Virus record (IMG/VR): IMGVR_UViG_2690316231_000017
Location: 1-10,543 of that record
Length of the DNA: 10,543 bases
Reading direction: 5' to 3' (one strand)
Origin: a virus
Lineage: Duplodnaviria; Heunggongvirae; Uroviricota; Caudoviricetes
Shown in pieces: positions 3,331 to 9,302 of the stretch. Under the pieces are notes generated by a model that was not told the origin of the DNA, searched no databases, and saw only the letters and a program-made list of their open reading frames with translations. Position 1 is the first letter of the stretch; the number at the start of each line of letters is the position of its first letter. The position numbers were made by a program, and so were the translations under genes.

Positions 3331-5745
3331 TTAATACAGATCCCGCCACTTATCATCTTCCTGCAAACGCTGGTTCCGATAGAAGATACGCAGGCCTGCT
3401 CCTGACGGAATACTGCCACCGCGAAGGAGTAAATCGACCTCTTTCTCGCTGCCATCAAATCCTCTGGACTTCAGTTCATAGACGAGCTGCTGTCGCTGAT
3501 GATCTGTAATTCGCTGTTTGTAGTCTCTACGCCGTTTCGGTTTCACCAGGCGTAACCTTGCAGCCAGTTCCCGGCGCTCTTTTTTGTTCATACTGTGCAG
3601 GTAATCGTGCAATTCCTTGTCATCCATGCGGGTGATATCCGTTCTGGTATCCCCATCAGCTGATTTGTCTTTCCCTTGTTGGTACAAATTTTCAGCAAGG
3701 GGACAGTTATTGCCACGAGTCCAAGGGGCGCAAGCGCCCTGGTCGGCTGCCGCCTCCTGAACGTCAACGGCCTTACGAACTATTTTCCACTTCACTGCAT
3801 GAGTGCAGATCTTGCCCTCTGCAATGGGTGACCAGATGCCATAAATACGAATACCGTGATCACCATAGGCGGTCGGCTCTTCGTTGATTTCATAAGCGGT
3901 TCTGATCAAGTGATATTTGCGGGGAACCAGTACGCCGCCCTGCTTCATGATGTAGGTGGCAAAACAACCAGCATCAGCAGCAGCCAGGATGGCATCAAGG
4001 CGCGGGTTATCCAGTACCGGCGCACCTGCTTTTTTGTCACCCTGTTGCCTTGCCGCCTGACCAGCCAGCAATCGCAGTTCACGGTAAGCCTGACGCCCCG
4101 GAATGCCAAAGAAGCGGAATTGCTGAACACGATGCAGAGACGCCCAGGCATTAACGTATTCAGCGTTATCACGCAGGGATTTACCCGTTTCCTTACTGAT
4201 CTCGCCAGCCAGACCACGCCCGTCAATATTCTTACTGATATATTTCGCAATGTAGCTTGTCGGCGTTCCTTTGCGCGGGTTTATCAGCTCAGACTTAAAG
4301 CGTGGCCCCGTGTTATTGCCCAGCTCCTCGCGGTCTTCACGGATGGCAAACTTACGCAACAATGCAGTAATGGCGCGGCGGTCTTTTTTGCGCATGAAAC
4401 ACAACAGGTGCCAGTGAACTGTGCCGTCATGATGCGGCTCAGCCACCCGCACGCCATACCAGCGCAACCCGGCTTTGTGCATAGCCTTACGAAATGCAGC
4501 AAACATGCCGACCAGATAATCGCTGCTTTGTCTTACTGTCGCGTTGGTCCAGGTCGGGTTTGGCCTACCGTTATTTAGCGTGGAATGGAAACGTGACGGA
4601 CAGGTGATGGTGTAGAAAACGGCGCAGTCACCACGCATTTCCGCGATAAGCTCCAGGCCTTTAACACAGGCCATCATCTCGTTGCGGCGATGCGCCGGGT
4701 TGCTGCTGCTGGCGTTTACCACATCCTCCATGTTCAGCGTGTCGCCGTCTTCGTTCACCAGTTCATGAGAACGGAAAAACTCCAGCGACTTACGGCGCTG
4801 CTCACGTTTATGCATCACGGCTTCATAGCTGACATAGGGAGATGCTTTTTTGCTGACCAGGCAGACAGCACGCAACTGCTCTTCCCGCCATTCGCAACGC
4901 ATCTTCCATAATTTCCGATACCACCAGTCGGCGCACAGCATACGCGCCAGCGACCCCGGAATGAGTTCATAGGGCACGGGTTTACGGCGGTTTCTTTTCC
5001 GGCGGAGTTGCTCAAACGCAGGCGGTATGACATCCAGTCGCAGGGTTTCTGCTGCCACCTTTTCCCATGTCTTGCGGATTTCTTCTGGCTTAACGTCATC
5101 GGTGGCATACAAATCACCACAAGCGGCATCAAGGCACATGCTCATATGCGCAGCGACAAGGGTAGACAGGCGCTTCACCTGATCCTGACTCATTTCAGGC
5201 AGGATAAGCAGGCCATCCAGCCCTTCATGGCTTGCCATAAAGCGAAAAGAAGTGGATAGCTGACAGTCGCGGACATGCTCCAGTCGTTCCAGACATGGCT
5301 TAATCGTCTCACGCAAATAGCGGGAATAAGCCTTTGGCCTGCCCAGGCTGCTGAAATATTCAATACGTTGCATCAGCGGCTTGCTGATATGGGAAGGCTG
5401 GGCATTGACGTCAGCCAGAATGACCATGTCTGGATTAAAACGCTGCTGCTCATGCGCCAGCTTTGCCCGGCTAATGAGCTTATCCTGCTCCATTTCGCGC
5501 TGGACAGGATCACGGGATTCATTAAAGAAATAACGCTCCCAGACCTGATCACTCAGTGCCTCGCGGCGCAGTTGTTCCTGCTCGTTATCGGCAGCGTACA
5601 GAGTGATCAGGTTTGAAAGTGCAGAAACCGGCGCAACTTCCGCCGGGTCCTGATAAGGGTTAATAGCCTTTTTCGGGCTGTTCCATGAGAATGCTGCGGC
5701 GACCTCGTTAAAGCCGCTGCAGTTGTTCATATCATCATGGCTCAT
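3331..5745 (-). CDS. A: Phage replication initiation protein A (P2 gpA-like HUH rolling-circle endonuclease), 804 aa
   Basis: 804-aa minus-strand ORF with an HUH motif (HWHLL, residues 444-448) and a paired-tyrosine active-site motif SYIAKYISK (Y498 and Y502, codons at about 4252-4254 and 4240-4242), the arrangement characteristic of the P2 A-protein family. Start ATG overlaps the dam stop (ATGA). Stop TAA at 3331-3333. Confidence 0.9.
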
Positions 5746-7636: not shown

Positions 7637-8146
7637 TCACAGCAAACCAAATGAAGCACCGAGGCCAGTCACGGTATCAACTGCACTCGCCATCGCAGGA
7701 TTAGCCTGTAAACGGGCCTGCAATGAAACAGCCGCCAGCGCCATCAGTCGTGTTACAGAGTTAATGCTACTGATAGCATCACGACGACCGGCACAGGTTT
7801 TTACATCGCCAGACACCGCACCTGCAGCAACACGCCCGATCTCTGCGGTTGCACTCATGACGTAATGTGGCAGTTTCTCTTTTGCCACCTCATTAATCGG
7901 TACACATGGCAGACAATGAATCTGTGCCAGAAAACCATCTACCAGCGTTGAATCTTCAGTCAGATCGGTAAGCAGCCAGATTTCTGGTGCGGTTAATAAA
8001 TGAGGCTGAGCTGGGTTCAGCTTGTTCCGCAGAATCTGCACATTCATGCCTGCACGTTCTGCCAGTTGCACCAGATTGTGGCGCAGTGCAAATGCACGAC
8101 AGGCTTCATCAAAATGTGGATGTTTGGAAACTTGGTAATCAAACAT
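7637..8146 (-). CDS. cII: Phage 186 CII-like transcriptional regulator (169 aa)
   Basis: The ORF-track start is a TTG; the ATG two codons in (8146) gives a 169-aa protein, the length I recall for 186 CII. It sits immediately downstream of the excisionase-like gene, as in 186 (apl-cII). AGAGG Shine-Dalgarno about 8 nt upstream. Assignment rests on position, size and recollection, not on an alignment. Confidence 0.6.
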
Positions 8147-8178
8147 GGTCAATGCCTCTGATGTATTTCAGAATCGAA

Positions 8179-8400
8179 CTAATTAAGGTTTAGATTGCAT
8201 TCTGAAAGCGCATCAACGGTCATTGCTGCTATGTTGATCATCACTTTTTCGCGTTTTTTATCTTTGCGCAGACGGTGACGGATAAGGCGTCCATCAGCCA
8301 ACATGTCATTGATGGTATCGATGGATAGCCCTGTCAGCTCGCTATAGCGTTCAATAGTCACATGAGGCGTGGTAAGAGTGATTGAAATGTTAGGTCTCAT
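8179..8400 (-). CDS. Apl/Cox-like excisionase / early-promoter regulator (73 aa)
   Basis: First gene of the leftward operon, diverging from the repressor gene. Small basic protein with a helix-turn-helix-like segment ([21 protein letters not shown]). ATG at 8400 with a GAGGA Shine-Dalgarno upstream. Confidence 0.55.
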
Positions 8401-8472
8401 GATGCAACATTCCTCGTTTAATGATGATTAATCAGGACGAATACGGATCGTTTGTATTTTGTGAACACCATA

Positions 8473-8501
8473 AACATACGATCGCACAGTGAAATCGTCA
8501 A
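8473..8501 (-). promoter_or_regulatory. Candidate lytic (pR-like) sigma70 promoter for the apl/cII operon
   Basis: Minus-strand -35 TTGACG (plus 8501..8496), 17-nt spacer, -10 TATGTT (plus 8478..8473); predicted start about 65 nt upstream of the apl-like ATG. The switch region also holds direct repeats ATACGGATCG (8441-8450) and ATACGATCG (8476-8484) and inverted GTGAAC (8461-8466) / GTTCAC (8509-8514) motifs as candidate operators. Confidence 0.4.
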
Positions 8502-8525
8502 GATAAAAGTTCACTTGGAGTGACC

Positions 8526-9095
8526 ATGAATTTGGAGAAAGGCGGACGAGGCGCCATAGAGCGCATGGTAGAAGCTTATGGATTCAAGACTCGACAGGCG
8601 TTGTGCGATCATTTAGGAATCTCTAAAAGTACACTCGCCACACGCTACATGCGTGACTCATTCCCAGCAGAATGGGTAATCCAGTGCGCCCTTGAAACAG
8701 GCACCTCGCTTAATTGGCTCACAACCGGGCATGGTTCAAAGCAAACTTCAGGTAATACAAATACTATGGAAGTTGCTAAATATGTATTATCTGATGGGGC
8801 CTTGTGTGAAGACGGTTTTTATATTTTCGATAGAGAATTTCTACCGTCGGCATTCAAGAATCTTTTTGTAATCACAGATAATAATTCTGAATTTATTTGT
8901 GATAAGGAATTTGATGATATACGTGATGGTAAATGGGTAATAAGTATTGATGGCGAAATAACGATCCGTGACATTACTCGTTTACCCGGTGGAAGAATCT
9001 TCGTCGAGGGTGGAAACAGAGCCTTCGAATGTAAGATAGAAGACATTGAAATAATTGGTAAAATTATAAGTTTAACAGTCAAGTATGTTAAATAG
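8526..9095 (+). CDS. cI: Phage 186 CI-like immunity repressor (189 aa)
   Basis: The ORF-track start at 8520 is a GTG; the ATG at 8526 has a GGAG Shine-Dalgarno 5 nt upstream. N-terminal DNA-binding region (EAYGFKTRQALCDHLGISKSTLATRYMRD...CALETGTSLNWLTTGHG) plus a C-terminal domain. Divergent from the apl-like gene and upstream of int, as in 186. Stop TAG at 9093-9095. Confidence 0.7.
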   Translation: MNLEKGGRGAIERMVEAYGFKTRQALCDHLGISKSTLATRYMRDSFPAEWVIQCALETGTSLNWLTTGHGSKQTSGNTNTMEVAKYVLSDGALCEDGFYIFDREFLPSAFKNLFVITDNNSEFICDKEFDDIRDGKWVISIDGEITIRDITRLPGGRIFVEGGNRAFECKIEDIEIIGKIISLTVKYVK

Positions 9096-9110: not shown

Positions 9111-9302
9111 ATGCTTGGTAAGGTATTTTTTGTGGTTTTGTCATGTTCTTTGTTATTAAACCCACTAGCTACCTATGCTAGAAATTATCCCTGCTCAGGG
9201 AAAAAGGGAGGTGTTTCTCACTGTACCTCTGATGGCAAATTCGTTTGCAATGATGGAACTATTAGTAAATCCAAAAAAATCTGTACTAAAAACTCACGAT
9301 AA
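9111..9302 (+). CDS. Small secreted Cys-containing, Lys-rich peptide (63 aa precursor) between cI and int; candidate moron
   Basis: Strong GGAGG Shine-Dalgarno (9101-9105) 5 nt before the ATG at 9111. N-terminal signal-peptide-like sequence ([23 protein letters not shown]) with no lipobox, then an approximately 40-aa mature part with four Cys and many Lys/Gly/Ser. AT-rich. Confidence 0.55.

Follow-up and report, generated by a model that had tools for sequence, protein, structure and literature searches.

The switch of coliphage 186 is among the best-quantified alternatives to that of lambda. The 186 repressor CI acts at three operators across the lytic promoter pR and at distal sites, and the spacing of the operators is reported as two helical turns (PMC3675496). 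In P2-like phages the overlap of the face-to-face transcripts is typically 40–60 bp (PMC7498355). As reference for the switch layout we used the GenBank record of phage 186, in which pR, pL, the CI and Apl sites, FL and FR are annotated. Dam-sensitive promoters and operators are known from IS10 (pIN), Tn5/IS50 (the transposase promoter), P1 cre, Mu mom with OxyR, pap with Lrp and agn43 with OxyR. The role of Dam enzymes encoded by phages was described in 2020 as "not well understood" (PMC7556043). A search of open-access texts gave nothing relevant on Dam control of a 186- or P2-type switch or on under-methylated GATC sites there, and no methylome or reporter data on methylation of the pR GATC described below were found in the open-access literature.

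The window analyzed here, a stretch of 10,543 nucleotides, covers the early/immunity end of a prophage that belongs to the P2 family and is of the coliphage-186 type. An intergenic region of 125 bp (8401–8525) separates the apl/cox-like gene from cI. Leftward from it the order is apl/cox-like, cII, fil, DUF5347, DUF2732, a TraR/DksA protein, a Dam of the D12 class and repA; rightward it is cI, a 63-aa ORF and int (Table 1). An earlier note on this DNA had proposed an immunity switch of the P2/186 type, and gene families, CI identity and layout agree with the 186 type. Judged by these sequence features, 8401–8525 is with near certainty the lysis/lysogeny switch of a 186-type (Peduoviridae) E. 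coli prophage. CI is 33% identical to 186 CI over 175 aa covering both domains (E=7e-38). The apl/cox-like gene is the first of the early lytic operon, and the role of its product by family is that of a recombination directionality factor and co-repressor; the 73-aa ORF has no Pfam match, is annotated as hypothetical in RefSeq, and matches 186 Apl weakly and in the N-terminal part only. An Rfam search of the window gave no RNA family.

Table 1 Features of the prophage immunity region, with putative regulatory sites assigned by pattern and homology
Feature	Position	Strand	Description
repA	3331..5745	-	P2 A-type rolling-circle replication initiator; PF05840 3.5e-127
Phage dam, 285 aa	5742..6599	-	In pR operon; PF02086 4e-76; E. 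coli Dam 2G1P 2.9e-72
cII	7637..8146	-	Lysogeny establishment activator; PF06892 4e-42; 69% identity to 186 CII; RefSeq coordinates
apl/cox-like gene, 73 aa	8179..8400	-	PHROG 575 'Cox-like excisionase and repressor', E=6e-31
Candidate distal CI site	8193..8209		FR-like, apl 3' end; GATTGCA-TTC-TGAAAGC; 13/14
Predicted pL (cI promoter)	8382..8410	+	-35 TTGAAA 8382-8387 within apl codons, 17 nt, -10 CAACAT 8405-8410
GATC-1	8446..8449		+18..+21 of pR; abuts O-a, in transcript overlap region
O-a, weaker putative CI operator	8450..8466		Over pR start; GTTTGTA-TTT-TGTGAAC; 13/14
pR	8473..8501	-	-35 TTGACG 8501..8496, 17-nt spacer, -10 TATGTT 8478..8473; predicted +1 ~8466
O-b, central putative CI operator	8480..8496		Fills pR spacer; GATCGCA-CAG-TGAAATC; 14/14 to half-site pattern
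GATC-2	8480..8483		-17..-14 of pR; outer 4 nt of -10-side half-site of O-b
Hypervariable 4-nt centre of O-b	8486..8489		pR spacer positions 7-10; ~17 alleles in 40-42 otherwise near-identical variants
O-c, putative CI operator	8509..8525		Upstream of -35, over cI ribosome-binding site; GTTCACT-TGG-AGTGACC; 13/14
cI, 189 aa	8526..9095	+	Immunity repressor, 186 type; PF07022 2.8e-33, PF16452 2.7e-27

Several features of the flanking genes are worth recording. The 63-aa ORF between cI and int (9111–9302) matches PHROG 6000 and combines a hydrophobic, signal-like N-terminus with several cysteines; presumably it is transcribed together with cI in lysogens and is a moron-like gene. A DinI-like gene is annotated beyond repA in the E. 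coli record, and in 186 the region beyond repA is occupied by tum, the gene of the LexA-controlled antirepressor through which SOS induction acts. The dam stop codon overlaps the repA start (ATGA, 5742–5745). In 186 the dam slot holds orf84 (L380, 344–1348), a PAPS-reductase-like and unrelated gene whose translation is annotated as necessary for translation of A. The gene upstream of repA therefore resembles a cassette that is exchangeable and translationally coupled.

The segment 8150–9100 is 100% identical to E. coli SY3626, whose prophage adjoins rcdA, and is matched in 657 of 5426 complete E. coli genomes, with the BL21 copy at 98.4%; REL606 likewise has a copy, at 98% identity. The immunity type of the window is present in ~12% of complete E. 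coli genomes, including B/BL21. Megablast against phage genomes gave no close cultured relative at the DNA level, and the closest CI among phage records is 56% identical. The switch belongs to a well-known family, in which it is heteroimmune, and is ordinary apart from the conserved GATC. Two contigs labelled 'MAG: Bacillota bacterium', L003 (JAEWTL010000113.1) and L010 (QAKE01000041.1), carry this enterobacterial prophage region, and the CI of L003 is 99% identical to that of the window; both look like mis-binned contamination.

The pR-like promoter TTGACG-17-TATGTT that had been recognized earlier is the sole promoter-like site in a consensus scan of 8100–8700, and it shares place and architecture with the annotated pR of 186 (TTTACT-17-TATATT). 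Shuffled sequences yield 1.3 ± 1.3 such sites in the same interval by chance, so that the support for this match is its position and homology and is not statistical. The pattern TTGACR-17-TAnnnT is kept at the pR of relatives. For cI, the earlier reader had found no convincing sigma70 promoter, and the scan likewise leaves this promoter below threshold (8/12); homology to 186 and HP1 nevertheless supplies a candidate pL, which was missed because its –35 lies inside apl, beyond 8401–8525. Relative to the apl/cox ATG, the –10 is 5–10 nt outside the gene and the –35 is 13–18 nt inside, offsets that are identical to those of the annotated pL of both 186 and HP1. From this we infer that TTGAAA-17-CAACAT is a weak cI promoter pL. 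The motif TTGAAAT is kept in the related loci that were read; the equivalent is TTGCGA in 186 and TTGCAT in HP1. The same heptamer (8382–8388) provides the codons for a conserved I-S-I of the Apl/Cox N-terminus, common to two families of recombination directionality factors, the 73-aa Apl-like and the ~90-aa Cox-like proteins, so that promoter element and N-terminal peptide motif constrain each other. Predicted pR and pL (+1 at ~8417) would stand face to face, with transcripts overlapping by ~50 nt, a value inside the range of 40–60 bp for P2-like phages.

A scan of the window with the half-site pattern GWTYNCW gives three putative CI operators across pR, with O-a and O-b 30 bp apart and O-b and O-c 29 bp apart. 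O-b, by its place, is the homologue of the palindrome in the 186 pR spacer, and O-c includes a 13-bp perfect palindrome, TCACT-TGG-AGTGA. Three 17-bp elements at 29–30 bp spacing are found in the window type and also in L088, L242 and L217; those of L088 read AGTCACA-TTT-TGAAATC, GATCACA-AAT-TGAAATC and GTTCACA-AGG-TGAAATC. These patterns make it most likely that a 186-type CI represses pR via three 17-bp sites about three helical turns apart. All the features listed in the earlier note are present in their places (GATC at 8446–8449 and 8480–8483, GTGAAC at 8461–8466, GTTCAC at 8509–8514), and the pattern scan and related types identify its GTGAAC and GTTCAC motifs as probable CI half-sites, GTGAAC (within GTTCACA on the other strand) forming the right half-site of O-a and GTTCAC the left one of O-c. 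The FR-like site in apl scores as well as the candidate pR operators and is 287 bp away from O-b, a placement like that of FR in 186 at the apl stop codon; it may add to repression of pR. No equally good FL-like site was seen inside cI in the pattern scan, and by eye no full CRP or IHF site is present around GATCACA.

The window immunity type is represented by 146 copies, which fall into 40–42 distinct variants over the 157 bp compared. The arms of O-b are almost invariant among them, and position 8484, beside the hypervariable centre, varies as well. Fixed arms around a variable centre fit an operator that would be contacted at its ends. The diversity of the centre points to diversifying selection, on either operator affinity or the strength of the promoter, or else to a local mutational hotspot. 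In CI itself, residues ~30–45 (8613–8660) form nearly the same recognition helix in heteroimmune types, SKSTLATRYMRD versus SKSTMANRYLRD, in comparisons with L004–L021 and L183–L242, despite quite different spacer operators; helix positions 7, 9 and 10, or else the spacing, may account for the difference in specificity.

Between pR and pL, no convincing direct repeat of 10–11 bp periodicity was found that would represent Apl operators. All that the region offers is TTAAT, at 8418 and 8428, and the motif TGATTA. TGATTA (8424–8433; L379 ~10760–10775) recurs as GTGATTA, in a comparable location between pL and pR, in several other types that have the Apl-like protein, and it is also present just beyond int. 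We regard it as a candidate Apl box. Five nearby positions (8421–8423, 8438 and 8445) have two alleles each in similar proportions, ~26 versus 16 of 42 variants, the alleles reading AATG...C...G versus AGCA...T...T, the second of which is common to L005/L006. These biallelic positions fall where Apl binds in 186.

Taken singly, the features of the switch do not exceed chance, and it is only the comparison with relatives that gives them significance. GATC shows no enrichment in the window (35 observed versus ~40 expected), and two or more GATC per 125 bp are seen in 7% of shuffles and 5.9% of real stretches of that length. The direct repeats ATACG(G)ATCG, which had been pointed out earlier, do not hold up as control elements: a repeat as good arises in 20% of shuffles, and the repeat is out of register with the operators, decays in the nearest subtypes, L005/L006, and is absent from the output of a repeat search of the window. 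A palindrome with 18-nt arms (8446–8463/8466–8483) is real but only 78% complementary and has no counterpart in other types; O-a and the pR –10 region, with the two GATCs on either side, explain it better. A GATC pair of the SeqA type is also unlikely, with the sites 34 bp apart and the upstream site confined to one immunity type. That site, GATC-1, is kept solely within the window immunity type, including L005/L006, is missing from the closest other types, and is lost in one window-type variant. GATC-2, which is separated from the –10 hexamer by one base, is kept in 40 of 42 window-type variants, the exceptions being GATT and GGTC.

For the comparison, 261 related loci were gathered with CI and three CII queries, pR was called upstream of the apl/cox ORF in each locus, and the switch regions were clustered into 83 sequence types. 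GATC positions were counted in 66 representatives with a credible pR, types that are not phylogenetically independent. The tetranucleotide starts at –17 in 19 of these and at –16 in 3, and elsewhere between –57 and +17 in only 3, where ~0.26 starts per position are expected. All cases at –17 lie within the CI clade whose recognition helix reads S(K/Q)ST(L/M)A(N/T)R. In this clade, to which the CI of the window belongs, 18 of 27 types have GATC at spacer positions 13–16, on the –10 side, and the –13 base and positions 3–5 of the –10 hexamer are randomized in relatives. The pR GATC is missing in 186 and its near relatives, in HP1 and in most types outside the clade. Elsewhere in the switch regions GATC avoidance gives no signal (14 versus 29 expected, with several permutations of the letters equally rare). 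The view that GATC in the switch matters is backed by the comparison for the site at 8480, which is conserved in position among heteroimmune relatives, and is not supported for the type-specific site at 8446. The exact tetranucleotide at an exact position in heteroimmune relatives, with the other spacer bases differing, points to selection of the pR GATC as a Dam target as the simplest reading of the sequences. We consider the conserved pR GATC a credible new lead.

The alternative that survives best is that the pR GATC is incidental, an outer segment of a CI half-site (G-W-T-C...) that repressor contact or ancestry has preserved, with no regulatory role for methylation; we think this unlikely but serious. 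Three of the four bases of GATC-2 fall within the putative CI half-site, so that CI contact could explain a large part of the conservation. The conserved block of ~7 nt, GATC(R)C(W), resembles a protein site, but at the mirror position of this operator, towards the –35, the tetramer is GATC in 0 of 27 clade types and is unconserved. The restriction of GATC to a clade with near-identical CI recognition helices is what repressor contact would give; the flanking operators of the same phages, however, read GTTCACA, AATCACA or CTTCACA, and the L083/L056 group and the L031/L090 types keep the G although it lies outside the operator palindrome. Where GATC is replaced in close relatives, it becomes GTTC (L064, L040 and L216), the form found in flanking operators, or AATC in SopEPhi. 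These natural losses, together with those among the window-type variants, indicate that the pR GATC is dispensable, and such tolerance also agrees with an incidental site.

A second alternative, close to that of the earlier note, is that the prophage's own Dam makes the switch sensitive to methylation, with the two GATC direct repeats as operator or control elements. The phage Dam aligns with the GATC methylase Dam of E. coli over 260 residues, nearly its whole length and with the DPPY motif aligned, so that GATC specificity is likely. The gene is in the pR operon, but this operon is by homology repressed by CI, and the gene, downstream of pR, would therefore be silent in the lysogen. Enterobacterial hosts carry their own Dam, and the methylating enzyme in the prophage state would be that of the host. 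The pR GATC and dam co-occur at the level of loci (73/25 versus 30/89), an association that reflects clade structure; at the level of types the counts are 11/9 versus 19/35, which is not significant (Fisher p=0.18). Types with the pR GATC and without dam (L009, L017, L005/L006 and L008) exist alongside types with dam and without the pR GATC (L064, L074 and L035). With the repeat no better than chance and not in register with the operators, and the upstream GATC specific to one type, the link between the phage Dam and switch methylation is unsupported, and we regard this alternative as improbable. Equally improbable is that the tetranucleotide acts as a methylation-independent promoter element through a favorable –17..–14 context such as T at –15: it does lie in the extended –10 zone, and in sigma-70 promoters T-15 belongs to the TGn motif, but –14 is C and not G, T at –15 is present in just 3 of 40 types without GATC, where A is commonest, and GAAC variants persist.

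The mirror half-site, the flanking operators and the T-15 counts together make repressor contact alone, or a general promoter preference, insufficient to account for the conservation, and we return to the pR GATC as a Dam target. In the mechanism that we propose, pR would drive apl-cII-fil-...-dam-repA, and pL would drive cI-orf63-int. CI would repress pR via O-a, O-b and O-c, and convergent pR would interfere with pL as in 186. GATC-2 would place an N6-methyl group in the major groove at –16 on the top strand and at –15 on the bottom strand, positions at which sigma region 3 would read the extended –10 and CI would touch the end of O-b. Full methylation, as opposed to the hemi- or unmethylated state of DNA that has just been replicated, could then shift the balance between RNA polymerase and CI at pR in one direction or the other, and firing of pR or rebinding of CI would depend on whether the DNA is newly replicated. 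The phage Dam, which would be made with RepA in lytic growth only, could keep replicating genomes methylated. For the whole account, a 186-type switch in which methylation of the pR GATC tunes the competition between RNA polymerase and CI, we put the probability at about 0.5; within it, the architecture is nearly certain, and the odds that methylation has an effect are close to even. More tentative, and somewhat less probable than its opposite, is the broader proposal that a single Dam site at –17..–14 may be a conserved epigenetic input to the switch of a large 186-like clade, with the phage Dam keeping the lytic pR methylated.

If the account is true, a very common prophage family of E. coli, Klebsiella and Salmonella couples its silence to the replication and methylation state of the DNA, and phage-encoded Dam enzymes gain a concrete role. 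An input of this kind would never show in the model phage, since 186 itself is without this GATC. The half-site model also predicts that changing GATC to GTTC, as in the flanking operators, would leave CI binding intact. Should the Dam idea be wrong, the analysis still provides a useful operator and promoter map for an unstudied and widespread immunity type.

Of the described systems, coliphage 186 (Eganvirus) has the same gene order, int-cI / apl-cII-fil-...-repA, and a CI with the same two Pfam domains, and its intergenic region is 129 bp compared to 125 bp here. In both phages the 17-nt spacer of pR holds an operator, the –35 of pL lies inside apl at identical offsets, and a distal site is placed near the 3' end of apl, FR in 186 and a candidate site here. 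The differences are that CI is just 33% identical and the Apl-like protein barely similar, that the operator sequences differ and the candidate operators are ~29–30 bp apart instead of two helical turns, that 186 pR has no GATC, and that dam is found here in the place of the PAPS-reductase-like orf84. Haemophilus phage HP1 likewise has CI and Cox genes with face-to-face promoters and the –35 of pL inside cox at identical offsets, but it has two tandem pR promoters without GATC, and its CI is 33% identical. The C/Cox switch of P2, in which a short C-type repressor acts on direct-repeat operators, was rejected as a model, as the repressor here is a two-domain CI of the 186 type and the candidate operators are inverted, not direct, repeats.

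Salmonella phage SopEPhi, Escherichia phage vB_EcoM-813R9 and Klebsiella P2-like prophages (Felsduovirus and related) share the CI clade and the switch layout, and the pR of vB_EcoM-813R9 reads TTGACA-N12-GATC-C-TAGTAT. They differ from the window in being heteroimmune, with CI at most 56% identical and no megablast match. SopEPhi (L381, 620–665) has AATC at the GATC spot within the same operator type as L031 and L012, which read GATC; its pR is in this respect a natural single-base 'mutant' of the GATC. The known Dam-sensitive promoters resemble the present one in having GATC within the core promoter and a putative regulator site, at a position kept among homologues. Unlike them, the switch has a single conserved site, not a pair, and a phage repressor from the 186 CI family would be its regulator. 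A position-conserved Dam site shared by the lytic promoter and its central operator would make this switch a novel form of the 186 design.
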